A stretch of 42,561 nt of DNA from a virus. Where the stretch lies: the UHGV virus genome UHGV-0163196. The stretch is one strand, 5' to 3'. The position numbers and the translations under genes were made by a program. The notes beneath the pieces were generated by a model. It was not told the DNA's origin and did not search any database. It saw only the letters and a list, made by a program, of their open reading frames with translations. Positions 3,511 through 42,480 of the stretch are shown here, one piece after another (position 1 is the first letter of the stretch; each line of letters starts with the position of its first letter).

Positions 3511-3918
3511 TCAGTAGCCAGTTATCGTATCTGCCAGCAGCTCATTCTTATAATCTGACAAAAGTTTAAGCGCCAAAGCAGTGTTATCGCAGTCGGCCTC
3601 TCCCGTAGCAGCAAAGATGGTCAGCTTGACTAACTCCATTGAGGTATTCAGTTCATAGCCATTCAAAAGCAAAAACACGCTGGCGGCCTGGAAAGCCGTT
3701 CGCTTATTGGCGTCATTAAAAGCGTGAGACTTCGCTATCGCAACCATGTACATAGCTGCAAATTTAAATAAATCCTCACATCCTTCATACATGCGTAAGT
3801 TATCGACGCGATTGAGGGCACCTTCGAGTTTTCCCCGGTCTGGTTGTCCGCTATTTGGCAATGTGCTCTTCTGAATAGCGATGACCTCATCTACCGAAAG
3901 GAATGTAATCTCAGTCAT
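3511..3918 (-). CDS. doc: Doc (death-on-curing) family toxin
   Basis: 135 aa; Fic/Doc-like sequence (…AAMYMVAIAKSHAFNDANKRTAFQAASVFLLLNGYEL…); start overlaps the stop of the upstream antitoxin gene. Confidence 0.8.
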   Translation of the reverse strand: MTEITFLSVDEVIAIQKSTLPNSGQPDRGKLEGALNRVDNLRMYEGCEDLFKFAAMYMVAIAKSHAFNDANKRTAFQAASVFLLLNGYELNTSMELVKLTIFAATGEADCDNTALALKLLSDYKNELLADTITGY

Positions 3919-4331
3919 TACTTATCTTCCAGTTTTTTTATGATGTCCGCATGCTTGGTCTGAGTATGTTGCAGAGCTTTGATAAATGACTCAGACACGC
4001 CCTGCAAAGCAACTGCTGCATTAGTGGCCTTCATCATAGTCTGGCGAGCCTCATCAGACTGAAGAAGGGCATCCAATTGCTTAGTAAGCTTCATGACACC
4101 CTCCGTTATCTGTGGTGACAAATTCGATGCAATTAATTGCGCAAGATGCGTGTCTATTGTTTTCGCAGATGTTTTTACCTCATCTGCGGAAGCAATTTCA
4201 TCAACTGATTTTGCACTGATGACAAGGTCGGGCTTTCCGCGCTGCGTAACTGTGACGCTTTCACCAGAGCGTAAACAGTCCAGCGTTGCAGATAAATCCG
4301 ATCGCATTTGCGTGTAAGTAATGATTTTCAT
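3918..4331 (-). CDS. phd: Phd/YefM family antitoxin with C-terminal extension
   Basis: Probable start MKIITYTQMRSDLSATLD at 4331; the N-terminal ~75 aa look Phd-like, followed by a ~60 aa extension; sits immediately upstream of doc. Confidence 0.7.
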   Translation of the reverse strand: MKIITYTQMRSDLSATLDCLRSGESVTVTQRGKPDLVISAKSVDEIASADEVKTSAKTIDTHLAQLIASNLSPQITEGVMKLTKQLDALLQSDEARQTMMKATNAAVALQGVSESFIKALQHTQTKHADIIKKLEDK

Positions 4332-4341
4332 GGCACCCTCT

Positions 4342-4386
4342 CTGTACATGTACAGATTAGTGCATAATAAAAACGCGAGATCAACG
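4342..4386 (-). promoter_or_regulatory. Putative phd-doc promoter with palindromic operator
   Basis: Perfect 14-bp palindrome CTGTACATGTACAG at 4342-4355 directly upstream of the phd start; -10-like CATAAT (minus strand) at 4363-4368 and TTGATC at 4381-4386. Confidence 0.4.
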
Positions 4387-14737: not shown

Positions 14738-14969
14738 CCGGTACAGGAATGCAAGGCTATTATTTAATCACCTGAAATATAAGGGTTTATTTGCAGTCTG
14801 ATTTTGCGTGTAGTCCATAGGCTGCTCTGTGATGTATGTCGCTGAATGGGGTAAGTTACTCAATAACAGATCTGTAGGATTTACAGGGGATTTCAATATG
14901 CAAGCTGTGCCACCAGCCCATTAGCGAACGGCGCTATTTTCCGCGCGTGACGTGTCACGGCGCTGGTGG

Positions 14970-15443
14970 TTATCCCATGAATTTGCGGTATACCTCCCCG
15001 GCTTCTTCGGCGGTTAGGTTCGTTGTTTCCGTTCTGATCGGACCACCATCCTTACCCGTTGTTTCAACCTTTAATTTGTTGGTGTAAGCGTCCCCGCACT
15101 CTTTCGCGGCCTGTTCGATAAGCTGTGCTGTTAATGCGTAATTCTTGATTGCCTCTGCACGGTTCGCCATGCGATCGAGCATACGCAGCCGGTACGCTTT
15201 GTTAGCGATAGGGATATCGGATATTTCACTCTGGAAGCGGGCGCGAGTGTGATTAAAGAGTTCTACCCATTTTTGGCTAAGATTTTTAGCCATTGTATTT
15301 TCAGGGTTGTAGGCCGATATCTGTTGCCGGGTAACAACGATGCCAAAATCTTGTTTTACAAGTTCGACGATTCTGGAAGGGGGTTCATAGCAAGCTAATG
15401 ATTGAATAATCATAACCTTAGCCATTGTTGGTAATGCCGCCAT
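14970..15443 (-). CDS. Small terminase-like protein (Sf6 gp1-like; candidate packaging-redirection factor)
   Basis: 157 aa; C-terminus KLKVETTGKDGGPIRTETTNLTAEEA resembles the Sf6 gp1 terminus (…VGKDGGAIQIETSP…); lies far from terL, inside the island. Confidence 0.55.
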   Translation of the reverse strand: MAALPTMAKVMIIQSLACYEPPSRIVELVKQDFGIVVTRQQISAYNPENTMAKNLSQKWVELFNHTRARFQSEISDIPIANKAYRLRMLDRMANRAEAIKNYALTAQLIEQAAKECGDAYTNKLKVETTGKDGGPIRTETTNLTAEEAGEVYRKFMG

Positions 15444-15535
15444 TGTTCACCTTTTGACAAAGGAAATAAAAGTAGCGTGCTGAGTTCTGCCCCTGCACCG
15501 CTACTTAAAGTTACAGATCACGTCATGGGTAGCTA

Positions 15536-16108
15536 TCACTCGCTCTCCAGATCCTCAAGAGAGAAGCAAATATGCTGTGTTGAAACAAAATAGCTCAGCA
15601 TGCTGCTTACCTTGTTTGACGCGACGTAATTATAATGCTCGACCATCTTTGCTAACGCGATAATCTCCCACCAGTAATGCTTAACTAGCTTTAGCGAAAT
15701 TAAATAAGCCCGGCTATAGAGCTTGTCGCAATCATCTCCTGTTGCGCCTTGGTTCCTGTATTGCTCAAGCACTTTCCGAATATCGCTGGCGTCTCCTTTC
15801 CCTCCATTTTCCAGTAGTTTTTCAGGTGGTTCGCCTGAGTAAAGGTGTTGTGCCATTACGCCAGAAAAAGAGACGACCATCTGCGCCAGTTCATCTTTTC
15901 TGACGGGGAGATGTGAGCATACCGCCCGGCAATTATCGACCTCTTTGCCGTTAGCCAGTCGAGCAATACGAAACTCATCAGCAATAGATATCTCAATTTG
16001 CCTAGCACCCGTAAACCACGCAGCCATCGCGTGACCGGCTTCATGGATCGCGATATTTCTGTCCCACATAGGGCTTTTGCTGAATTCAACAATTACGCCA
16101 TCACTCAC
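15536..16108 (-). CDS. Standalone HExxH zinc metallopeptidase-like protein
   Basis: 190 aa with the motif IAIHEAGHAMAAW (HEAGH, as in FtsH/M41 and ImmA-like peptidases) and no ATPase domain. Confidence 0.5.
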   Translation of the reverse strand: MSDGVIVEFSKSPMWDRNIAIHEAGHAMAAWFTGARQIEISIADEFRIARLANGKEVDNCRAVCSHLPVRKDELAQMVVSFSGVMAQHLYSGEPPEKLLENGGKGDASDIRKVLEQYRNQGATGDDCDKLYSRAYLISLKLVKHYWWEIIALAKMVEHYNYVASNKVSSMLSYFVSTQHICFSLEDLESE

Positions 16109-16170
16109 GCTGCTTACTCTCCGTTAGATCTGTCATTTAGTTAAATTGAACTGCGTTGGGGGAGTCTCCA

Positions 16171-16350
16171 TCACACACTCCCTTCAACTGCTATTGATTC
16201 CAGCGCCTTAGCCACCAGCCCACGAGCAATTTGATGGACAGACGGCGCGACGCCAATATCGGAGCGCTGGCGTTCGCGCTCCTGGATCTTGCAGATTGCG
16301 GCGAACTGGTCGCCAGAGAGTAATACCGGCTTAACGTTTGGCTTTTTCAT
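16171..16350 (-). CDS. Small hypothetical protein (59 aa)
   Basis: Internal start MKKPNVKPVLLSG… of the 112 aa track ORF; the other reading would overlap the upstream 64 aa gene. Confidence 0.3.
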   Translation of the reverse strand: MKKPNVKPVLLSGDQFAAICKIQERERQRSDIGVAPSVHQIARGLVAKALESIAVEGSV

Positions 16351-16525
16351 CCTGTTCACTCCAGAACTTTGCATTCGCTTCGTTGACTTTTTCCAGATTG
16401 CGGCATTCGTTGTTGAAGTTGTTGCGCATCCGCAATTGCTCGGCCTGTTCACGGCCAAAGAGTTTACGCCCGGCGCTTTGCGGGTTTCCTGCAGCCAATT
16501 TCGGGTCATAAATAGCCATGCTCAT
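16331..16525 (-). CDS. Small basic hypothetical protein (64 aa)
   Basis: ATG preceded by AAGGAG with good spacing; lysine/glutamate-rich and probably helical. Confidence 0.4.
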   Translation of the reverse strand: MSMAIYDPKLAAGNPQSAGRKLFGREQAEQLRMRNNFNNECRNLEKVNEANAKFWSEQDEKAKR

Positions 16526-16531
16526 TGCTCC

Positions 16532-17095
16532 TTACTTCGTGCGATGCCAGAAACTGGCGTTATCGGTGTTAATGCTGCGAATGGCGTCGCCTGTGGAGAG
16601 AATCTTCGGTGAAACGTTGTTAACTCGCATGTAGTCGCCAACCTGCTCCAGAACGTCGATAGCCTGATCAAGCTGAATCTCTGATAGCGGGGTCGGATGT
16701 ACCGCACTGAATGCCTCAGCGGGTGCGTAACGCAGCACATCAAGCGCAACAAGGCGAGGATCGGTATCAGGAAGGGCGTTGTCATACTTTGGTGCTACAG
16801 CGCGTACCAGGCGCATAAATTCAGCGTCCATTGCCGTTGGTGCGGTAGAGGTGGGAGAAGCGCCGCTGCCACTACGTGTAATCATGTCACTATCGCGGGT
16901 GTACATCCGGCGCAAGCGGTCTCCGGTTGCAATGCGTGTTGCACGTTCCTGCTTAAGCGTCGTTGCAAGATTCGCAATGACGAGAGCCACAGGAAGCGAG
17001 CAGGTCAGCCTTTCGAACGTATCATCGGAGTAAGTCACCTCGACGGTACCACCAGCGTTATCACTTTCCAGATTAACATTGGTTATCTGTTTCAT
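16532..17095 (-). CDS. Hypothetical protein (187 aa), first gene of the island's left module
   Basis: ORF following a promoter-like AT-rich region at 17100-17250; no recognisable motif. Confidence 0.45.
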   Translation of the reverse strand: MKQITNVNLESDNAGGTVEVTYSDDTFERLTCSLPVALVIANLATTLKQERATRIATGDRLRRMYTRDSDMITRSGSGASPTSTAPTAMDAEFMRLVRAVAPKYDNALPDTDPRLVALDVLRYAPAEAFSAVHPTPLSEIQLDQAIDVLEQVGDYMRVNNVSPKILSTGDAIRSINTDNASFWHRTK

Positions 17096-17378
17096 TGTTC
17101 ATAACCTTTTGCGTTGTTTAAATTCTGATCATTGCATAAATTGCAACATTAGTAAATATCATTGCGCATATTGAAATGGCAAATCGACGTGATACTATGA
17201 CGGTGATCCACCATTGTGTGATTGCATAAACATGGTTATCAAAAGCCCTCGCCTCTCCAGCGCGGGCTTTTTCTTTTCCGCTCCGCAAAGTTGCCGTTTC
17301 CGCATACTTTCACTTAGGCGACGCCCCTCCAAATTCGTAATTACTCTCCGAAAAAACTCTATAGATAAGCAAAAACAT

Positions 17379-17675
17379 GTTGGTTCAGTTGGTTCAGTTG
17401 GTTCAATTTGTAAAGATTGTTGTTTTATAAGGATTATTTCTTTCAGAGTGAACCAACAAAGCCCCGTTTTGAACCAACAAACGCTATTTTCGTGTTGGTT
17501 CAGTGGGAAAGATTTACAGGCCAGCCAGAAAAAGGCGTTGGTTCAATAGCGGCATTTGTTGGTTCAAAATGGGCGTTTGTTGGTTCGGTGTTGGTTCACT
17601 TACAAGCATGTAAATGCATTAAATACATACACTTATATTAATTAAATAGTTACTGAACCAACTGAACCAACAAAA
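17379..17675. repeat. Iteron cluster: candidate satellite replication origin
   Basis: At least 12 copies of the core TTGGTTCA in both orientations (for example 17379-17405 tandem, 17449-17457, 17470-17478, 17494-17502, 17654-17670), interspersed with AT-rich DNA, immediately downstream of the primase-helicase gene. Confidence 0.7.
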
Positions 17676-17696
17676 AAACATCTCGTATGTGTGTTT

Positions 17697-20477
17697 TTAT
17701 TCTTCACCCTCCATCTCGTCGGGTCGTAGCTGGAGCACATAAACGTTTATCTGGCGTCCATCAATTCGCGGGGATTTACGCTGATACCCCCTTCCGCTGG
17801 CTGGCGGTTTCAGCACCCCAGCCCCGGCCAGCACACGGGCAAACTGTTTCGCGTTGAATCCCTTCGCAATCTCACCTTCGAATGCTGCCGGGAACGTGTA
17901 GAACACTATCGGATCAGCATCATGCGCCCCTTTCTGACGGTACCCGGCCAAATCCCGAATCGGCATGTCAGCCGGGTCATAAGGGTAAGGTGCAAATCGG
18001 CTCAGTCCGTATGCATTAAGAAACGCCTCTGCCTGCTCGATGATCTGCTTATGCTCACGGTTCCCCGTGCCAAACTCTTTCACCCAGGCGTTAAAGCCAT
18101 GCTGGATGGCGTCCCGGCTTTCCTGCTCCCCCCAGCCAGTGACAGGCATCCCAAGCACCAGCGCCGCCTCCAGAATGGCGAACCGCTCGCCTACACGATG
18201 AACCTGTTCGCCATAATCAGCGGGGATAAGACTGCGCCAGCGCTCTTGCGCCGCTCTGACAGCTTGTTTTGCCTCCTGCTGGTGGCCTGCAAGCCATTTA
18301 ATCCATTCACGGCCTGCGGCTCCGTGGTTCGTCTGGTAAGCCTCTTTGAGTGCGTCGGCGTGTTGCTTCCCGTTCTGGTACTCATGGTGCGTTACTGATT
18401 TCTCCATCGGTAAATTAAGCAGCCGCACCAGTTGTCCGGCCTTAACTTTCAGCCCACCAGCAGAAAGAAACGTCTCAATGTCCATTTCCCCGGTACTGAT
18501 CGCCACGGTACGCCAGCGCTTTAACTCGCGGTTGCCTCCCTCCTTCGCCCCCTGTAGCTTTCCGGCACCGTTAAACAGCGTGTAAGCTGACGTGGCAACG
18601 TCTTTGGCGCTACTGCCCTGCCCCACTTCGTCCAGCGGTAACAGGCTATCGTTATGCGCTTCCGCTTCGTTGGCGATACCCAGCGCAGTACCGTACCAGG
18701 TGAGGCGCAGGGCATCCGGTTCACCGTATAAACTGCTGGCAATGTTGGCGGTCGTTGTCTTCCCTGCGCTGGACTGTTCGAAAAGGTGAACACCGAAACC
18801 GTCAGCGCCAACAAGCCCGATCAGCGGTGCAGACAGCGCAGCCGCAACACCCAGCATCATTGACGGGTTTCCCAACGCAAGACGCGCCACCGAATCACGC
18901 CAGCTTTCCGGCGTTCCACTGACGGTATAGCCACCAGCCGCCGCACTGCGGCCACTGAATAAAAGCGGTATCTCTGGATCACCAATAACATCACCATCCG
19001 GCATGATGTACGCCCCGCTGTGCCAGCCTGTGGTGTGGCTGATCTGCCACTCCTTGCCGCTACCGGTTCGCTGTAGCCAGTCGGCCAGAATTGCCCGCAA
19101 CGATGGTTTGGTCGTCACACTGACACCGCCGTTTTTCAGAGTTCGCCATCCCTCGCGGTCGCCAATGTCCTCCCAAGGAAGCGCACGGGTAACTTGCCCC
19201 CGATTGCCGGGAACGTCCCAACGCAGGATCAGAAAGCGCTGTCTGGCGTTATCACTCCCCGCACCAGCAATCTCCAGCGGAGAGCATAGCCACGCCTCGG
19301 TATTGATAATTTCCCCTGTGTCTTTGTCCACTTTCGGGGTGATCCAGTGAATGCCATCCGAACGGCTCTCTACTCGCGGTTTAAGGTCGTCGTCGATACC
19401 AGGGCTTTTTTTGCCGCCGTCGATTGCTGTCAGTGTCGCACCCACTTTCTTACCCTCCGGTTGATACATTGAGTCGTTAAATGCTGCTGTGGCCGCTTCG
19501 AGGCCGTATTGCTGGTGGTAGTCGTTCCAGTCCGCTTTATAGTCCACTGGTGGCATGGAAACCCAGCCAGAAACGGCTTTCGCGGCTTTCTCTGCGGCCT
19601 CCTTGCCAGTGTTAACTTTCACTCCTTTAATTCCGTCACTTTCGCCCATCTGGTCGTTATCTGCGGCAATGATGATTTGTGCCTGTGGGTACTTCCGGCG
19701 CATCACTTCGGCAACGGGTAGCAGGTTGCCCGCGTCAATTGCTGCCACTGCCAGCGCGTCCGGGCGCATCAGGTGAACTGAAAGGGCCGTCGCCAGCCCC
19801 TCGGCAATTAAAACGCTCTGCGGCGATTCTGGCGCGTTTACGGCATGATATGCCCCGCGCTTTGCTGAACCTGTCAGGAGTCGCTTCTCTCCCTGCGGTG
19901 TAATGGTTTGCGCTGCTGCCACTGCGCCGGATTCGTCCACCAGCTCCAGCAATAACGAACCATCAGGCATAACCGGATAGTTAAACCCGGTCAGCCCTTT
20001 TGATTGCAGGTAATCAGATTCGCCCTGTGTGGCACTCTGGCGCATTCCGGCATACAGACGGGCAAACGTAGCCCTTCGCTGCTCTGCGTCCCCTGCTGCC
20101 TGTTTCTGGCGCTCCTGCTCACGCTGCTGGCGGTCAGCTTCCAGTTGCTCCCTTCTATGGCTCGCTGCCACCGGGTCGGATTGCGCTGCCAGGTAATCAA
20201 TACCCAGCACGTCAGCGGCAAGCTGTGCCGCCTCCGTAGTGTCGCAGTTGTTAACCCGCTTGATTAAATCCAGCCCGTCACCAGCGCCACACTGGTTGCA
20301 GATAAAGCTACCGCGCCCGTTGTCGTCGAATCTGAAACGGTCTTTTCCACCACATGCAGGGCATGGAGAATGGCGGCGCGATGAATCAGGCACGTCGATA
20401 GACAACCCAGCCAGCACATAAGGCCAGCGCCCTGCTGCGGCGCTGGTCACTTCGCGGATAAGGTCGATATTACGCAT
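17697..20477 (-). CDS. P4 alpha-like primase-helicase (zinc-ribbon, TOPRIM, D5-like helicase)
   Basis: Zinc ribbon CPACGG…CNQCG, TOPRIM-like IIIAADNDQ, Walker A SSAGKTTT; ~925 aa. Start taken at MRNIDLIRE. Confidence 0.85.
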   Translation of the reverse strand: MRNIDLIREVTSAAAGRWPYVLAGLSIDVPDSSRRHSPCPACGGKDRFRFDDNGRGSFICNQCGAGDGLDLIKRVNNCDTTEAAQLAADVLGIDYLAAQSDPVAASHRREQLEADRQQREQERQKQAAGDAEQRRATFARLYAGMRQSATQGESDYLQSKGLTGFNYPVMPDGSLLLELVDESGAVAAAQTITPQGEKRLLTGSAKRGAYHAVNAPESPQSVLIAEGLATALSVHLMRPDALAVAAIDAGNLLPVAEVMRRKYPQAQIIIAADNDQMGESDGIKGVKVNTGKEAAEKAAKAVSGWVSMPPVDYKADWNDYHQQYGLEAATAAFNDSMYQPEGKKVGATLTAIDGGKKSPGIDDDLKPRVESRSDGIHWITPKVDKDTGEIINTEAWLCSPLEIAGAGSDNARQRFLILRWDVPGNRGQVTRALPWEDIGDREGWRTLKNGGVSVTTKPSLRAILADWLQRTGSGKEWQISHTTGWHSGAYIMPDGDVIGDPEIPLLFSGRSAAAGGYTVSGTPESWRDSVARLALGNPSMMLGVAAALSAPLIGLVGADGFGVHLFEQSSAGKTTTANIASSLYGEPDALRLTWYGTALGIANEAEAHNDSLLPLDEVGQGSSAKDVATSAYTLFNGAGKLQGAKEGGNRELKRWRTVAISTGEMDIETFLSAGGLKVKAGQLVRLLNLPMEKSVTHHEYQNGKQHADALKEAYQTNHGAAGREWIKWLAGHQQEAKQAVRAAQERWRSLIPADYGEQVHRVGERFAILEAALVLGMPVTGWGEQESRDAIQHGFNAWVKEFGTGNREHKQIIEQAEAFLNAYGLSRFAPYPYDPADMPIRDLAGYRQKGAHDADPIVFYTFPAAFEGEIAKGFNAKQFARVLAGAGVLKPPASGRGYQRKSPRIDGRQINVYVLQLRPDEMEGEE

Positions 20478-20811
20478 GGTTGCCTCCTGCCACGGTCGCG
20501 CCCATATCATTAATCATGCTTTGCCATATCTCGCGCCCGACGTCAGTCAATCCGTCCTTAGTGACGCAACGATCAAGAAGCTCGATCCCCACGGTTTCCC
20601 ACTGCGGGTAGAACACTTTCATGGCTGCCAGTGTGTAGCTATCGATCAGGCTGCGAACGCCTTTTACTCCATTGACGATTTCCACACGGACGGCGAGGCC
20701 GTCCGCATCAACCATGAAATAGTCCCCGCCGCTGGTGGCGGTAATGTGGTTATACAGTGCCGACGCATACTTATTCGCCAGCGCATTCAGTCGGAAATTT
20801 TTAGTAATCAT
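20470..20811 (-). CDS. Hypothetical protein (113 aa)
   Basis: ORF coupled to the primase start; no recognisable motif. Confidence 0.45.
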   Translation of the reverse strand: MITKNFRLNALANKYASALYNHITATSGGDYFMVDADGLAVRVEIVNGVKGVRSLIDSYTLAAMKVFYPQWETVGIELLDRCVTKDGLTDVGREIWQSMINDMGATVAGGNHA

Positions 20812-20820
20812 GTCGCCCCC

Positions 20821-21447
20821 TCAGTGCGCCAGCGGCATTTCAGGCCAGCCGTTTTCATCCAGTTCAGCTATAAAGCTGTTGTGAAGTTCAGCAAGCGTTT
20901 CACGCCCGAACGGGGTCAACTCGCCGCGCTCCGTGTCCAGCATGGCCTGATAAAAAACAATGGCGTTCGCCGTTCCCTGCTCAATGCCGTAGCGCTCAAT
21001 CATTGCGCCCTCGATGTTGTTCGCCATCGCCAGCCGTTCAGCAAACGGGTAAACCACCATGCCCGCATTACCATTGGAGTAAATCGCCACCTGCGATGAT
21101 GTGCCGTCAGCCTCAGTAACCGTGGTGGTGCCGTTCTCGCGCTTCATCTCAGAAACGAACGTCGCAGCAATCAGCCAGCGCCACATAGTGACGTTATGCT
21201 GCGCGGTGAAGTCGAACCAGCCACGCGCCCCGCCATCAGCAACGGCAAAATGAATGGCGTAGCCGATATCGGGCGTATCGTCGTACTCTCCCGCATCCAG
21301 ACGGCTTACAGCGCTCTCATAGGTGATAATGGCTACATGCTCATACATCCCGGCATCGTTGCGGGTCATGATATTGACGCCGTGCGGTGTGGCTTCGGCG
21401 TGGAACAGGTCGGGATTTCCCGGTTTAATGGTCAGTATATTGCTCAT
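20821..21447 (-). CDS. Hypothetical protein (208 aa)
   Basis: ORF in the island's early operon; no recognisable motif. Confidence 0.45.
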   Translation of the reverse strand: MSNILTIKPGNPDLFHAEATPHGVNIMTRNDAGMYEHVAIITYESAVSRLDAGEYDDTPDIGYAIHFAVADGGARGWFDFTAQHNVTMWRWLIAATFVSEMKRENGTTTVTEADGTSSQVAIYSNGNAGMVVYPFAERLAMANNIEGAMIERYGIEQGTANAIVFYQAMLDTERGELTPFGRETLAELHNSFIAELDENGWPEMPLAH

Positions 21448-21665
21448 GCTTTGCCCTCCCGATATTCACGCATTACATGGTCAGCTAGCTTGCTTTCAGC
21501 CTCGCTCATTGCTTCGGGCACACCGTGTAACAGCGTCAGAATGGAACCTATAAGGCGTGGTAAATCGGGATCTGTTTTATTGGTGGTGCTCTCCAGCCAC
21601 ATGGACAAAACAGCCTGTGCCTGTTCAATCTGGCAGGCAGCATCAATCAGTTGTAACTGGCTCAT
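21444..21665 (-). CDS. Hypothetical protein (73 aa)
   Basis: Small ORF overlapping its neighbours by 4 nt. Confidence 0.35.
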   Translation of the reverse strand: MSQLQLIDAACQIEQAQAVLSMWLESTTNKTDPDLPRLIGSILTLLHGVPEAMSEAESKLADHVMREYREGKA

Positions 21666-21925
21666 GCGCTGCCCTCCGCATCAATTCTGGCTATATCGAC
21701 AATCGTCAGGACTTTACTAAGCCAGCAATACGCGATGGCTGCTTGCTCAACTTCGAGGAGTGGTAATAAATCGGTCATAACGTGAGCCAGCCCATTGCGG
21801 GCGCGGGTCATGCGTTCTGCGGTACGCTCTGCCAGCGTGAAAGAGTCAGGGTACGGCTGTTCGCGGGATAGCATCGCCTCGGCCTCAAGATCTGCAGGAT
21901 GGCGATAGATGGTATGAATGTTCAC
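21662..21925 (-). CDS. Hypothetical protein (87 aa; GTG start or internal Met)
   Basis: ORF in series with the neighbouring small genes; start codon uncertain. Confidence 0.35.
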   Translation of the reverse strand: MNIHTIYRHPADLEAEAMLSREQPYPDSFTLAERTAERMTRARNGLAHVMTDLLPLLEVEQAAIAYCWLSKVLTIVDIARIDAEGSA

Positions 21926-22101
21926 GCTGCCACCTCCTGAATACGAGTAATACGAACGTGCTTATAACCGCCTTTATTCGCCAGTAGTTGCGCAGTCGAT
22001 TTAGCTGTTTCTGGACTGGTGCTAGTCATGGTGTAGTGAATGCCGACGGTGTTACCGCGCTTGTTAACAGCGTATCCGTCGATCTGGAAGGTTTTACGCA
22101 T
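21922..22101 (-). CDS. Small hypothetical protein (59 aa)
   Basis: Hand-translated MRKTFQIDGYAVNKRGNTVGIHYTMTSTSPETAKSTAQLLANKGGYKHVRITRIQEVAA; below the ORF track length cut-off. Confidence 0.3.
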   Translation of the reverse strand: MRKTFQIDGYAVNKRGNTVGIHYTMTSTSPETAKSTAQLLANKGGYKHVRITRIQEVAA

Positions 22102-22972
22102 TTCCGACCTCCATTGCTAAACGGGACTGGATAGCTGCCGCTTTACTGCCTAATTGCAGGTAAGTACGAGTTATCGCAGGGTTGCTATGACCCAGCATTT
22201 CAGAGGCCACTAATAGGCCCTGTTCGCCACCTGCGGACATGAGGTTAAAGGCGGCTATTTTGCGGCTTGAGTAGGCGCTCAGGCGCAATTTAGCGTTAAT
22301 GAAACGGGTAAACCACGCCATGACGCCATGAAGTTTGCGCCAGATGGTTTGGCGAGTAACGCTACCTTCCAGACGTTGACAACGGTTACTTTCGATTTGA
22401 GAGCGGGAAAATACCAGGTCGTCCTCCACCAGATTCCGATCCTGACGGTCACGCAGCCGCTTGATAATGCCGGGGGGTAACTGTTTGGTGTCGTGCTTGA
22501 CGTCAGCCTTAGCCACCAGCCCGAACACAATCGCCTGTTCTTCGTCGTTCATATCGGCGGCCAGTTCATCACAGCCGATACTATCCCACTTCATGTAGGC
22601 GATATGGTCAGCGGCGAGCCGCGCGGCGTCCTTGCGCTGCTGGCGCACAATTTCAATACCTTTGCGGGTTGCCCGCGCTTCTGCGGCTTTGGTCTGTTTG
22701 GAAACGATAATTGTCGCCTGTCCAGTTTCCCAATTGATGCAGGAATAGCGCAGGTTGCAAACGTCGCTGGTACGCCAGCCGGTTACGGTCGCAATATCCC
22801 ACCAGAGCAACACCCAATCGGGCTGTGTCTGCTGGATGCGCTCGCGTAGCTTGCGCTGCTCGTCACGGTCATAGACAGGGGTCATGGTGCGACTGCCCTT
22901 TGTGCTCGCCGCTTTAACGACATTGCCGCGCAGCTCGCGGGCTTTGGCTGTCAGAGTCTGGAGGTTAAACAT
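22094..22972 (-). CDS. Second tyrosine recombinase (short phage-integrase family, no arm-binding N-domain)
   Basis: About 292 aa from MFNLQTLTAKAREL; C-terminal LGHSNPAITRTYLQ with a candidate catalytic Tyr and conserved Arg/His positions. Confidence 0.65.
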   Translation of the reverse strand: MFNLQTLTAKARELRGNVVKAASTKGSRTMTPVYDRDEQRKLRERIQQTQPDWVLLWWDIATVTGWRTSDVCNLRYSCINWETGQATIIVSKQTKAAEARATRKGIEIVRQQRKDAARLAADHIAYMKWDSIGCDELAADMNDEEQAIVFGLVAKADVKHDTKQLPPGIIKRLRDRQDRNLVEDDLVFSRSQIESNRCQRLEGSVTRQTIWRKLHGVMAWFTRFINAKLRLSAYSSRKIAAFNLMSAGGEQGLLVASEMLGHSNPAITRTYLQLGSKAAAIQSRLAMEVGNA

Positions 22973-23153
22973 GACGCACCTCCGGCACTGGCAGACGTGC
23001 GGCCAGAGACAAAATAAAGTGCGGCGCAAGGATGCGGCGGGCTTCGCGTTCGGTCGCAGCCTCAACGGACAGACGGCAAGGTTTGGCTTTTTTATCGTGG
23101 CGATTCAGCGCGAGAAAGCGCCAGGTGAATTTTGAGTGTGCGGATCTAGCCAT
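22965..23153 (-). CDS. Small protein (possibly Icd/Ash-like)
   Basis: 62 aa, MARSAHSKFTWRFLALNRHDKKAKPCRLSVEA…; recalled resemblance to small Icd-like prophage proteins only. Confidence 0.35.
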   Translation of the reverse strand: MARSAHSKFTWRFLALNRHDKKAKPCRLSVEAATEREARRILAPHFILSLAARLPVPEVRHV

Positions 23154-23473
23154 TTTTAGCGGCTCCTAGAACATATTGAAGGAGTCTCGCCAGATGCTGC
23201 TAAACATGGGTGGCGAGACGTGACGGGGTTAGCAGACTGGCGTTCTAGGAAACCAGCAGGCGTTAAGCCTCCCCACCACGCCCCGCCATAAATCGGGGGT
23301 ATGGTTGGTTTTCGGGCGTAAAAATACCGCTATACGGAAATCAGCGGCTACCCGCTAGAACGTTCAGGCTGCTAAACCCGGCACCCGTTTTGTGAGGTGC
23401 GAAATAATCATAACCACACTACCCCGTTAAGCGCAAGGGAAATATCCCCTGCGCCCACAATGCAAACTTGTGA
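23154..23473. promoter_or_regulatory. Repeat-rich intergenic region (candidate recombinase/regulator binding sites)
   Basis: Motifs CTAGAAC and GCTGCTAAAC recur in direct and inverted orientation at 23161-23205, 23227-23250 and 23353-23377. Confidence 0.4.
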
Positions 23474-24544
23474 TTAGTACCCGCGAGAAGCGTAAACTCG
23501 TGCCATGCCAGCCCAATGAGAGAAAAGAATTTCCCACTTAATTGGGTTGTAGGTAATACTTCCATCGACTGCGGCAGCATTCCATGCCCGATCAGAAATA
23601 GAGCTATCTTTAGCAGTTTTCCCCCATTCAACAATATCCCTTGCTAAAGCCTGTACACATGCTCGACTGACTACCTTTTCGTCAACGTACGCCCCAACAT
23701 CAGAGCATGACTCCATACTCATGTTCAGGCTATTTTTAAGGGACTCCAGCCCGGCCACTGACATAAAGCGACGACCATTAGCGTATGCAACACCGTCATT
23801 CCTGATAGTGAACTTAACAGTGTGGAATGCGTCAACAATCATCCGCTGCTCTGGCGTCGGGTTCTGCCATAGCACAAGGTTAATCTCTCTCTCAGAAGCT
23901 ATTGATTCTGCTTTCTCACGCTTAACTCGTGCATCCCGTTCTGCCTGGTATTGTTTTTGATTTTCATCATGAGCCTTTTGGTAACTAGAGGCTAATGCGT
24001 CTCTGTTTTTGGCAAATGCTGCAATGCTATTTTTGAAATCGCTTCTGCTAACCTTGTTTAACCCCATACTCCAGCGGTCATTTTCGTAATCATCATAAAT
24101 GGCATCAACTTTTGCCGGATTACTCAGCACAGTCGCCAGATTAACCGGAATTTTAGCCATCTCGTCACTGATTCTCGCTACATGTTCGAAAGTCGATATA
24201 GAGCCAACTTCATGACTCCCATACTCATGATAAGCGGCATAAAAAATTGGAATAGATTGAGGTTTTTCGTTCACTGACTTAATGATGCTTTTTTCATCAC
24301 ATGACTGTTCACCCCATTTGAAAACACTTTTCCCACCATTTTTGTATGTGTTGCAATCATCAATACCCAAACGAACCAGCGCATCCCATCCGGGCCGTTT
24401 CTTGTAATCCTCGCTCTTGACAACATGCATTGTGGTTAGGGCTTTCGCAGGATCTAACTTGCCAGCGGTACAAGACACGATAGGAAAGGCCAGAGAAGCG
24501 CAGGCTGCTATCCTGAAAAGGCTCGTCAATCTTTCTTTTTTCAT
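23474..24544 (-). CDS. Lipoprotein of unknown function (island cargo)
   Basis: 356 aa; N-terminus MKKERLTSLFRIAACASLAFPIVSC carries a signal peptide with lipobox-like Cys; AT-richer than its surroundings; flanked by ~0.3 and ~0.9 kb non-coding DNA. Confidence 0.6.
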   Translation of the reverse strand: MKKERLTSLFRIAACASLAFPIVSCTAGKLDPAKALTTMHVVKSEDYKKRPGWDALVRLGIDDCNTYKNGGKSVFKWGEQSCDEKSIIKSVNEKPQSIPIFYAAYHEYGSHEVGSISTFEHVARISDEMAKIPVNLATVLSNPAKVDAIYDDYENDRWSMGLNKVSRSDFKNSIAAFAKNRDALASSYQKAHDENQKQYQAERDARVKREKAESIASEREINLVLWQNPTPEQRMIVDAFHTVKFTIRNDGVAYANGRRFMSVAGLESLKNSLNMSMESCSDVGAYVDEKVVSRACVQALARDIVEWGKTAKDSSISDRAWNAAAVDGSITYNPIKWEILFSHWAGMARVYASRGY

Positions 24545-24708
24545 CGTCCTAATGCTCTTTCAAACCAAGAATGTAGGACATAGTAAATTGTGGTTAATGG
24601 CAAGTCGATATAAAGGCCGGGTTATTGGCTTCGGTGCCAATATCATTTCTCCGAAATTTCATAACGCCTGTAATCGCTCGTTTCCCCATCTTGGGGACAT
24701 TTCAAAAC

Positions 24709-24828
24709 TGCGAATCAAAGTGCGAATGGAACTGCGAATTCGCAAAGAGAGAGCGCCGCTCAAAGCAGGCCGGATAAGGCTTCGCGGACATATTGCGAAT
24801 GCGAATCCACCAGAAACGAAACGCGAAT
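24709..24828. repeat. GCGAAT repeat cluster including the palindrome TGCGAATTCGCA
   Basis: Six copies of (T)GCGAAT within 120 bp; the 12-bp palindrome at 24733-24744 also occurs twice in the helper terS gene. Confidence 0.55.
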
Positions 24829-25384
24829 CACCCATAAACAAAACCGATACGCAGGGAGCGTACTGCCCGTATTCAATCGGCCGAAAAGTCAGCCGATTAA
24901 AATCATGCCCGGCTATCCCCTGAAATTTCAGGAGATCGAGAGCCACCAGCAGAGAACCGTTCATGCCATCGGTAACTTGCAGCCCGAAGCTCAAATCTGA
25001 GCGTTGACCGCCAGCCAGAAGAAACCATTTTAAATCCCGCGCCTTCTCTTTGGATGAACAGGGTTACTCCCCGTAATGCTGTGAACTGCCACGATGATTC
25101 GGGGTTGTGTTGCGCTGGCCTTTGAGTCCCGCACAAACACTGACCCACAAAATTTTTGTAGGTGACTGGCCCTCTTGATGAGGTGCTGTTTTGCGTAACC
25201 CTTAATGAGTTGTGCAAAGGCTCAACCCTTCAAAAGGGTTGCCTAACCACCGGCGATAGTAATAACCGCCAACCTATGAACACTATGAACACCTTTGAGC
25301 ATTTTTCTATAAACATTCCACTACTGCCCTATTTGATGCCTTTCTCTGGCTGGCCTGTGTAAGTTACCGTTGCTGGGAACTGAC

Positions 25385-25420
25385 AATAAAAAAGGCTTGC
25401 CCCTCTCAGGTAACAAGCCT
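25385..25420 (-). terminator. Putative intrinsic terminator downstream of alpA
   Basis: Stem aggcttg/caagcct at 25393-25420 with a run of A on the plus strand at 25386-25392 (U-run on the minus transcript). Confidence 0.4.
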
Positions 25421-25438
25421 TGTCTATCGCTCTGGATC

Positions 25439-25651
25439 TCACTCACTACAGATTCCGCGCTTTTGGCTCTGTCTTCCGATCCACGCCTCCACCTCATCGC
25501 GATACCAGCAATTGCGGCCGCCAACTTTGAAGGGCATCGGAAAGCCGTTCCCCTCATCCTTCAGAAATTCATAGAACGCAGAATCAGAACGGTAGCGTAG
25601 ACGGGCTTTAACTTCGACTTTGAGCAAAATATCACTGTTAGATATGGACAT
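25439..25651 (-). CDS. alpA: AlpA-family transcriptional regulator/excisionase
   Basis: 70 aa with the typical AlpA pattern (…FPMPFKVGGRNCWYRDEVEAWI…), directly downstream of the integrase gene. Confidence 0.75.
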   Translation of the reverse strand: MSISNSDILLKVEVKARLRYRSDSAFYEFLKDEGNGFPMPFKVGGRNCWYRDEVEAWIGRQSQKRGICSE

Positions 25652-25793
25652 AAAAACCTCATTATATATTCGATATAATTATATATGATTTGAATAAAAA
25701 AAACGCATTCCGGTTAGCTTTGGGCATAAAAAAAGCTGGCTTAAAGCCAGCTATACCCGTTTGAAATCATGATTATCCAGAAATGGATGTGCC

Positions 25794-27023
25794 TTACACA
25801 ACCAGCCTCAAGCCCTTATCGCCGCTGGTCTCCAGTATTTCGCCACACTCTGCGGCCTCGATAAAGTCCCCCCACCATTGCATTAAAACCCGGCGTTTTT
25901 CCAGATAGTCGCTACGGTTATAAACATTTCGAATCGCATCGGCGCTTTTGTGAGCGAGTGCAGCCTCAATCACATCAGGGTTGAACCCCTCGTCATTTAA
26001 AACTGTAGATGCCAACGCCCTGAACCCATGAGGAACAATCAGCCCTTTAAACGACGTTTTGTGTATCCCGGCCTGAGTCGCACAGCGTGAGATCGGCTTA
26101 TTTTCTTTTCGCCATGAGGGGAAAACATAATCGCAGCGCTTCCACTTTTCGGCCTCTTTAAGCACGTTTATAGCCTGGCTCGATAATGGGACTACGTGGG
26201 GGCGCTTTCCTTTCATCCGGCTTGCAGGGATTTGCCAGATTGAGTTATCAAAATCAATCTCATTCCAGAGAGCGCCGCCAGCCTCCGAAGGCCGGACCAT
26301 CGTAATGATCTGGAATAATAATGCCAGCTTTGATGGCTCCCATAAGCTCAACTCGTTCCATGCGCTTAAAAATTCGGGCAACCGCTCTTTCTGTAAAGTC
26401 GCTCTTGGCTCGTTTTTTTCAGCCGGGAATGCTTTACCAATTTTCGATAGCGGGTTGTGCTCAATAACCCCAATGTTTACCGCATAATCCATTATGGCGT
26501 TGATGGTAATAACCATTTTCGTAAGCGTTGATGGCCTTTCCCTGAAAGGTTTAAAAGCCTGAATAGTATCGGCTGCGTTTATTTTATGTACCGTGGTATG
26601 CCTAAAAATCGTGGAAAGATGCTTCAACGTCACATTGTGCGATTCAAGCGTGTTGCTTCTCGCACCTTCTTTAATCTTGATTTTTAGCCATTCATCGGCA
26701 ACGGCCTGAAATGACTGCGCGTACATTTTACGCTGTTCATTCCTGGCATCTTTTTTGACTTCGTTCGGATCTATCCCTCGCGCTACCATACGGCGCAGTT
26801 TCGAACGTTCCTCCCTCGCTTCGGACAAAGTAAACTCCGGGTATCGTCCAATAGTATAGGTTTGTCTCTTCTTCGTTACCGGGTGTACATACCGAAAACG
26901 CCATGACTTACCGCCCCGGCTTGTGATGTAAAGCAACAAACCGAAACCATCGTGCAAACTGAAATCCTTGCCCTGTGCCTTCGCGCTTTTCACTTCGACG
27001 CTAGTTAGTGGCCTAACAATCAT
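25794..27023 (-). CDS. int: P4-type tyrosine integrase
   Basis: 409 aa; N-terminal arm-binding domain typical of P4-like integrases (…DGFGLLLYITSRGGKSWRFRY…) and a C-terminal catalytic domain. Confidence 0.85.
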   Translation of the reverse strand: MIVRPLTSVEVKSAKAQGKDFSLHDGFGLLLYITSRGGKSWRFRYVHPVTKKRQTYTIGRYPEFTLSEAREERSKLRRMVARGIDPNEVKKDARNEQRKMYAQSFQAVADEWLKIKIKEGARSNTLESHNVTLKHLSTIFRHTTVHKINAADTIQAFKPFRERPSTLTKMVITINAIMDYAVNIGVIEHNPLSKIGKAFPAEKNEPRATLQKERLPEFLSAWNELSLWEPSKLALLFQIITMVRPSEAGGALWNEIDFDNSIWQIPASRMKGKRPHVVPLSSQAINVLKEAEKWKRCDYVFPSWRKENKPISRCATQAGIHKTSFKGLIVPHGFRALASTVLNDEGFNPDVIEAALAHKSADAIRNVYNRSDYLEKRRVLMQWWGDFIEAAECGEILETSGDKGLRLVV

Positions 27024-27237
27024 TCAACACCTCTCTGGCTACCATGTAATGCAAACGGCGCATGATTCTCTTTCTAGTCCCTCATGTACCGAATCAAAGC
27101 GAAATCCGGCGAATAAATCCGCACATGTTCGGAGTGTCATTTTTATGGTTCAGGCCAGTAACGCCGTATGATTCCGAACGATAACGCACTGATTAATAGA
27201 TATTAGTTGCATAAGGTACAGATATGCAGTCATTGGA

Positions 27238-41763: not shown

Positions 41764-42480
<717 letters not shown>

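Follow-up and report, generated by a model that had tools for sequence, protein, structure and literature searches.

The early operon of satellite phage P4 has the order vis, cI/icd region, epsilon (95 amino acids, aa), orf151, cnr (106 aa) and alpha, and crr follows right after alpha. The C-terminal DNA-binding domain of alpha is reportedly the target of Cnr, which on binding there stimulates the attachment of alpha to ori and crr; mutations conferring resistance to Cnr are said to map in this domain. In 90% of P4-like elements a member of the cnr family lies between epsilon and alpha, and cnr controls plasmid copy number (Moura de Sousa and Rocha, PMC8628076). Helper-embedded phage-inducible chromosomal islands (HE-PICIs) are excised and replicated passively after induction of their helper, and 14 insertion sites have been published (Tommasini, Mageeney and Williams 2023, PMC10111431). 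The DNA analysed here is a stretch of 42,561 nucleotides of the virus genome UHGV-0163196 (the window), which contains an HE-PICI inside a lambdoid helper prophage. Five small genes of this satellite, named A to E, lie directly upstream of its primase-helicase gene. Sequence comparisons link D, and probably also E, to P4 Cnr, and these two proteins would more likely tune the replication of the satellite itself than manipulate the helper.

The operon that holds these genes resembles the P4 early operon at both ends and has the same polarity. An immunity RNA and an icd-like gene stand at one end, Cnr-like genes, a Toprim primase-helicase gene and iterons at the other, and the iteron region takes the position of P4 crr. 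The middle differs: epsilon (PF25738) and orf151 have no homologues here, and their place is taken by A, B, C and the recombinase-like gene. Genes for the icd-like protein, epsilon, orf151, Cnr and alpha are held by 80 P4-like loci, in which tblastn searches with A to E gave nothing. Furthermore, the satellite lacks sid, delta and psu; its organisation, with int, an AlpA-like gene and, at the far end, a DUF2280 gene, is that of a PICI. E is close to Cnr in size (113 versus about 106 aa); it is a single-domain protein encoded directly 5′ of the primase gene, to which it is coupled, and as in P4 the operon has a CI/C4-type RNA and an icd-like gene at its head. D, in contrast, is separated from the primase gene by E; it has twice the length of Cnr and carries a beta-rich domain at its N-terminus that Cnr lacks. 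Other differences are that P4 has one such gene, whereas two (elsewhere three: D, E and a paralogue of E, named E′) stand in tandem here, and that relatives of D and E also occur in true phages, away from replication genes. The immI region of P1/P7 likewise has a C4-family RNA (here above the Rfam threshold), then an icd-like gene coupled to the next gene; here, however, this next gene is tyrosine-recombinase-like and not Ant, and the operon runs on into replication genes. Like the described HE-PICIs, the satellite combines a P4-type integrase and an AlpA-like gene with three zones: a variable one with C4/isrK-type RNAs, one for replication with the primase and a late one. Cnr/DUF5375 and the small genes that lie between Bro zone and primase are not treated in that description (PMC10111431). 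No description of A to E was found in the literature searched. The HE-PICI setting has been described before; what is new is the occurrence, in PICIs and temperate phages, of a Cnr-like protein with two domains and of diverged Cnr-like paralogues in tandem. The link ties the replication module of a PICI to that of P4 at both the immunity RNA/icd end and the Cnr-like/primase/iteron end.

D belongs to phrog_1515 (3e-47), a family of unknown function, and gives a secondary match to phrog_5991 (E=6.7e-4, D residues 139–196 on positions 42–103 of the 106-position profile). P4 ORF106, which is Cnr (Pfam DUF5375, PF17345), matches phrog_5991 over its full length (2.4e-55). A search of 1.84 billion representatives with a D profile yielded four short, standalone proteins (P0498, P0514, P0519, P0512; 1.7e-7 to 7.7e-5) that bridge the two families, matching phrog_5991 at 3.4e-14 to 4.6e-9 and phrog_1515 at 4e-10 to 7.5e-6. 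DUF5375 was also the most frequent Pfam match among 150 representatives of the D family (5 of 150, best E=0.0075). When the profile of the D C-terminal family was built without Cnr, hhalign aligned Cnr to it over 92 columns with a probability of 94.8% and P=5e-8. The two proteins have in common a WRW/YRR helix, the motif (N/E)(I/L)EG..(Y/H)G..G and a terminal PxxH; Cnr ends in APVLH and D in MPLAH, and PxxH is invariant in the D family and the bridging proteins. These profile comparisons establish the C-terminal domain of D as homologous to Cnr at the superfamily level, without making it a DUF5375 member in the Pfam sense. The initial annotation had stated that the five genes show no recognisable motifs. 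This holds for A, B and C and for the standard libraries (Pfam, NCBIfam, PADLOC), whose scans gave nothing at thresholds for any of the five genes, but it does not hold for D as a Cnr homologue and probably not for E.

The D family comprises 735 clusters in 5.8 billion sequences; among the 1.84 billion representatives it forms 163 clusters at 50% identity. The E family comprises 136 clusters. Both are confined to Enterobacterales, except that D is also present in Aeromonas. A Foldseek search of D against the viral structures of BFVD gave no match at E≤0.001, and no solved relative of Cnr was found. The Cnr copies in IMG/VR, 76 of them identical to the P4 protein, three with 99% and one with 93% identity, were too uniform for a Cnr-family profile.

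E belongs to phrog_37628. Many related loci carry E′, a 123-aa tandem paralogue ending in ..AKH (E versus E′, P=4e-11). Compared with a joint alignment of the D C-terminal domain and Cnr, E alone reached P=8e-4 over 100 co-linear columns, and E together with E′ reached P=2.9e-4 with a probability of 40%; the controls (20 column shuffles, the reversed alignment and the profiles of A, B and C) gave P≥0.054. Fusion proteins were left out of this final comparison. With shallow alignments hhalign of D versus E recovered the LTxxGRE motif only (probability 3.5%). The order of predicted helices and strands in E is the same as in the Cnr-like domain of D, the C-terminus of E (GGNHA) has a His at position −2 compared to the PxxH of Cnr and D, and a D-E fusion protein of 336 aa is present in the database (P0385). 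On account of the profile score, the fusion, the fold order and the gene position, E is probably a divergent member of the Cnr superfamily. E′ proteins of 123–124 aa ending in ..KH or ..IH, in the order E, E′, primase, were seen in the related loci L048-L053, L057, L061, L043, L047, L082, L083 and L093.

The five minus-strand genes fill the interval 20470–22101 exactly (Table 1), with the lengths and orientation given by the initial annotation. Every one of them is preceded by a ribosome-binding box (GGAGG or GAGG) 6–9 nt before its start. The junctions are GTGA for A/B, ATGA for B/C and C/D, a 9-nt gap for D/E and ATGCGTAA for E/primase, and the recombinase-like gene overlaps A by ATGCGTAA as well. 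Apart from the D/E gap, overlaps of 4–8 bp run through a chain of eight genes (icd-like, starting at 23153, recombinase-like, A, B, C, D, E, primase-helicase). The operon proposed on the basis of tight overlaps is thus borne out, and it is longer than assumed. Ratios of nonsynonymous to synonymous substitution (dN/dS) against homologues from other genera are 0.07–0.23 for the five genes (Table 1) and 0.19 for the primase N-terminus, and AlphaFold2 gave mean confidences (pLDDT, predicted local distance difference test) of 83 for D and 92 for E. RefSeq annotates the same five coding sequences on the chromosome of E. coli ABWA45 (98% identity). A to E are real genes under purifying selection and form the middle of one translationally coupled early operon. 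From this anatomy we infer their co-expression with the replication protein under the RNA immunity switch.

Table 1 Features of the satellite and its borders, in coordinates of the window
Feature	Coordinates	Strand	Size	Characteristics
Gene A	21922..22101	minus	59 aa	basic, pI 10.2; Shine-Dalgarno (SD) site GGAGG; dN/dS 0.17; in 35 of 79 related loci
Gene B	21662..21925	minus	87 aa	acidic; GTG start with GGAGG; dN/dS 0.23; in 40 of 79 loci
Gene C	21444..21665	minus	73 aa	acidic; phrog_20558 (1.7e-10) and phrog_2196 (2.6e-6), both of unknown function; dN/dS 0.07; in 42 of 79 loci
Gene D	20821..21447	minus	208 aa	acidic, net charge −18; N-terminal beta-rich domain and C-terminal Cnr-like domain (~82–208); dN/dS 0.20; in 57 of 79 loci
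Gene E	20470..20811	minus	113 aa	phrog_37628 (unknown function); stop overlaps primase start; dN/dS 0.17; in 38 of 79 loci
Primase-helicase	17697..20477	minus	926 aa	Zn_Ribbon_Prim 1.4e-15, Toprim_3 7e-14, DUF927 3.4e-45; phrog_1139 1e-184
Iteron origin-like region	17379..17671	both orientations		11 exact GTTGGTTCA repeats directly 3′ of the primase gene
Tyrosine-recombinase-like gene	22094..22972	minus	292 aa	Pfam Phage_integrase 4.9e-11; PHROG 216 integrase 2.8e-20
icd-like gene	22965..23153	minus	62 aa	NCBIfam NF033153 phage_ICD_like, E=1.2e-22; stop overlaps next start
C4/CI-type antisense immunity RNA	23206..23293	minus		RF01695 C4, 75 bits (gathering score 45), E=1.7e-13, match 1–87 of 87
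isrK-like RNA element (tentative)	23320..23400	minus		Rfam RF01394, 44.6 bits (gathering score 50), E=4.9e-7
P4-type tyrosine integrase	27023..25794	minus
att core copy, integrase side	27215..27228			GGTACAGATATGCA; junction mapped against the uninterrupted site of Citrobacter phage Omnitron
att core copy, distal side	14741..14754			GGTACAGGAATGCA; 5′ end of the helper cement/minor-capsid gene; same Omnitron mapping

The explanation we consider best, and to which we give about an even chance, is that D and E are Cnr-superfamily modulators of the satellite primase-initiator acting at an iteron origin. Once the block by the immunity RNA is lifted, D and E would be made in step with the primase-helicase-initiator, bind it and change its engagement of the 11 GTTGGTTCA iterons. 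By analogy with P4 Cnr, their action would restrain or time replication of the satellite. Copy-number control of helper-embedded satellites affects the transfer of the satellites and of any cargo. The link to Cnr also gives a first testable function to the genes directly before the primase in about three-quarters of this PICI lineage.

The distribution of the genes was followed in 79 IMG/VR loci chosen solely by similarity of the primase N-terminus. None of the five genes is present in 12 of them. The slot order is conserved (f8, B, one of C/f10/f11/f13, D, E, optionally E′, primase), while presence and absence are free and identity jumps from gene to gene. According to a tally of the locus listing, about 61 of the 79 loci have D, E or E′ adjoining the primase gene; in the others this place is taken by a DUF4222-like 72-aa gene or a gene of 73–81 aa. 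Seven loci without A to E (L071-L073, L077, L078, L084, L087) encode primases that are 98–100% identical to the present one over residues 351–830 (L084: 80% over 351–500), whereas residues 1–120 are just 32–36% identical. This pattern points to recombination breaks inside the primase gene, by which the Zn-ribbon end would be swapped together with the upstream small genes. A coupling of the type of D or E to the primase C-terminus was looked for and rejected; because of linkage the type of D tracks the adjacent primase N-terminus only.

Several observations weigh against D and E as primase-directed modulators. A match of D or E to DUF5375 is absent even at E≤10 (gathering score 30 bits), and the sequence link of E is modest, with probabilities of 25–40%. 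D and E are found with both classes of primase C-termini, and the seven primases mentioned above occur without them, so that D and E are dispensable for the helicase/DNA-binding part of the protein; such dispensability is compatible with a non-essential negative regulator. The phages phiP27 and Stx2_95 carry D together with O/P or DnaB/DnaC-type replication genes and no alpha-type primase, and in both the D homologue lies leftward, far from the replication genes. No other observation weighs as heavily against a strictly primase-directed role as the occurrence of D in phages of this type, which makes a host-directed or inter-element role conceivable. For A, B and C, moreover, the tie to replication consists of co-transcription only.

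The phage relatives bear directly on the alternative that fares best. D homologues with 32–38% identity were found in phiP27 (L06), ASU11 (gp53), many Stx phages, Klebsiella phages, AsXd-1, CharmingMan, EKP1 and phi467, E homologues with 61–64% identity in EKP1 and phi467, the two phage records with E, and a C homologue in the early-left operon of Fels-1. All D and E homologues of phages are annotated as hypothetical (phrog_1515 or phrog_37628). In the inspected genomes, those of all these phages but the Klebsiella ones, the homologues of C, D and E belong to the leftward early operon, which lies on the xis/int side of the cI-like repressor. Their neighbour there is often an ORF6N/antirepressor-type gene, not a replication gene. 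In lambda the equivalent region holds gam, kil, ral and similar genes. A tblastn search of phages with the primase N-terminus was uninformative on co-occurrence, and individual genomes were inspected instead; EKP1, phi467, Fels-1 and CharmingMan encode Zn-ribbon/Toprim P4-like primases. The Cnr fold thus reaches beyond P4-like satellites, as part of a two-domain protein in temperate phages including Stx phages, and its presence in phages without an alpha-type primase raises the question of its target there.

It is therefore conceivable that the five are early accessory genes common to temperate phages and satellites, which serve host takeover or counter-defence, for instance as acidic DNA-mimic or nuclease-inhibitor type proteins, and which lie near the primase merely since the operon ends there. 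Besides the leftward early position in phiP27, ASU11, Stx phages, AsXd-1, CharmingMan, EKP1, phi467 and Fels-1, the acidic character of B, C and D (most pronounced in D, Table 1) and the strongly mosaic presence and absence of the genes with their identity jumps speak for such a role, as does D in phages without an alpha-type primase. Nevertheless, Cnr, the homologue of D, is known only as a regulator of copy number that acts through alpha, and D, E and E′ of satellites nearly always directly adjoin the primase. We regard this alternative as possible but rather unlikely.

The initial annotation had placed A to E at the position where satellites encode helper derepression, antirepressors or interference with helper late functions. 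Such a role for some or all of the five genes appears improbable to us. Indeed, P4 epsilon has the same map position between the immunity region and alpha; the equivalent interval of P4 holds cnr too, and none of A to E matched the epsilon family PF25738 at E≤10 (P4 epsilon itself: 9e-51). A and B, which have no homologues in 50,697 phage records, look satellite-specific, A to C have no assignable function, and antirepressor-type genes lie just upstream in related PICIs. Matches of A to E to Ant/AntA-AntB, Bro-N, KilA-N or ORF6N were absent in Pfam and PHROGs, however, and the defence and interference models of PADLOC gave a match at chance level only (E versus DrmMII, 0.023). As relatives of C, D and E occur in ordinary temperate phages, these three are not satellite-specific genes for helper exploitation, and the 12 satellites lacking all five genes do without them. 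A derepressor is not needed either, because a helper-embedded element is excised and replicated passively after helper induction (PMC10111431). With D Cnr-like and E probably so, helper-directed functions are not supported for these two. An assignment of all five genes to known replication accessory families had been named as the finding that would speak against helper-directed functions; it was reached for D and probably for E, and not for A, B and C.

More doubtful still is that the Cnr-like domain, which makes up Cnr, E, E′ and the C-terminal half of D, serves as a mobile initiator-directed module in conflicts between elements. If this were true, D homologues of phiP27 and Stx phages could jam the primase-initiator of resident satellites as a counter-measure, satellites could stack D, E and E′ to control their own initiator or to act on rival satellites, and A, B and C would become candidates for undescribed helper- or host-directed effectors. 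That A to E are chance or decaying reading frames without function is practically out of the question: deletion fusions of C-D, D-E and D-primase (P0396, P0425, P0427) indicate decay in some copies, but strong SD sites, coupled stops and starts, dN/dS of 0.07–0.23, conservation in many genera and confident structure models contradict this view.

For A, B and C, firm statements end with conserved, optional genes that are co-translated with the replication module. A had no match in Pfam, PHROGs (best 0.018), the PDB profile search or the phage collection, and for B no family, PDB or phage-collection match was obtained. Profile searches of C against solved structures (PDB) also gave nothing. The slot alternative f13 matches phrog_2196 just as C does, and C has one relative in the 50,697 phage records. 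In hhalign comparisons with the profiles of D, E and Cnr, A, B and C stayed at background level. We tentatively suggest that they are further modulators of the early or replication programme and not helper-directed effectors. In GenBank and RefSeq the product of gene B is often named ‘nicotinic acetylcholine receptor subunit beta’, and related islands have a gene next to it that is called ‘ubiquinol-cytochrome C reductase’; the two names look like propagated mis-annotations. Hundreds of Enterobacterales genomes label the genes of this region as “hypothetical” or wrongly as nicotinic receptor genes.

At the upstream end of the operon, the C4 RNA lies 5′ of the icd-like gene, which by sequence is the RNA immunity layout of P1 immI and P4 in a PICI. 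The isrK family RF01394, to which the RNA element further upstream gave its match, is the Rfam family that detects relatives of P4 seqA. The recombinase-like gene is coupled to icd at the position of ant in P1 immI and keeps an LGHS...T..Y motif at its C-terminus; its product is a candidate recombinase or DNA-binding regulator. At the other end, the true start of the primase is 20477 (MRNIDL..., 926 aa), overlapping the stop of E, and not the start of the 937-aa open reading frame (ORF) at 20510. Among the proteins of the phage collection it is closest to P4 alpha (35% identity). All 11 GTTGGTTCA iterons lie within 293 bp, compared to 0.33 expected, and at least 11 were seen in none of 100 shuffles. 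This region is likely an origin or crr-like region.

The satellite itself extends over 12.5 kb (about 14755–27214) and is inserted between the helper DUF2213 gene and the cement/minor-capsid gene (Pfam Phage_cement / XM1_gp53), with all genes co-oriented. An exact-repeat search did not reveal att sites since their core is imperfect; they were resolved with the help of the empty site of Citrobacter phage Omnitron (CP115737; 97% identity). The att repeat is an imperfect 14-bp sequence, GGTACAG(G/A)(A/T)ATGCA, which flanks the satellite on both sides; the insertion is at the first codons of the cement gene. The att repeats and the empty site in a related phage confirm that the adjoining primase belongs to the satellite. 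The element is an HE-PICI, a kind already known (PMC10111431): it has an integrase, an AlpA-like gene, a primase, a co-oriented insertion in a helper late gene, att repeats and helper head genes on both sides, and it carries no virion structural genes. Its layout comprises the P4-type integrase, the AlpA-like ORF (below the Pfam threshold, E=0.0065), a lipoprotein-like cargo gene, the operon, the iteron region and a short late zone with the DUF2280 gene.

Some further genes were noted along the satellite and the helper. The cargo gene (23474–24544, minus strand), between the AlpA-like ORF and the immunity RNA, encodes a 356-aa protein with a signal-peptide- and lipobox-like N-terminus (..PIVSC); it matched no family and is a candidate gene for surface exclusion or defence. 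Two proteins are encoded in the late zone of the satellite (14970–16108, minus strand): a DUF2280 protein of 157 aa (6.6e-39), for which we suspect a relationship to small terminase subunits, and one of 190 aa with a HEAGH zinc-protease motif, whose relatives are named ‘peptidase M41 family’ in RefSeq. The helper encodes a LexA-type CI repressor at 41767–42480, and a Phd/YefM-Doc (Fic/DOC) toxin-antitoxin pair is located at 3511–4349 (minus strand) among its baseplate and tail genes.

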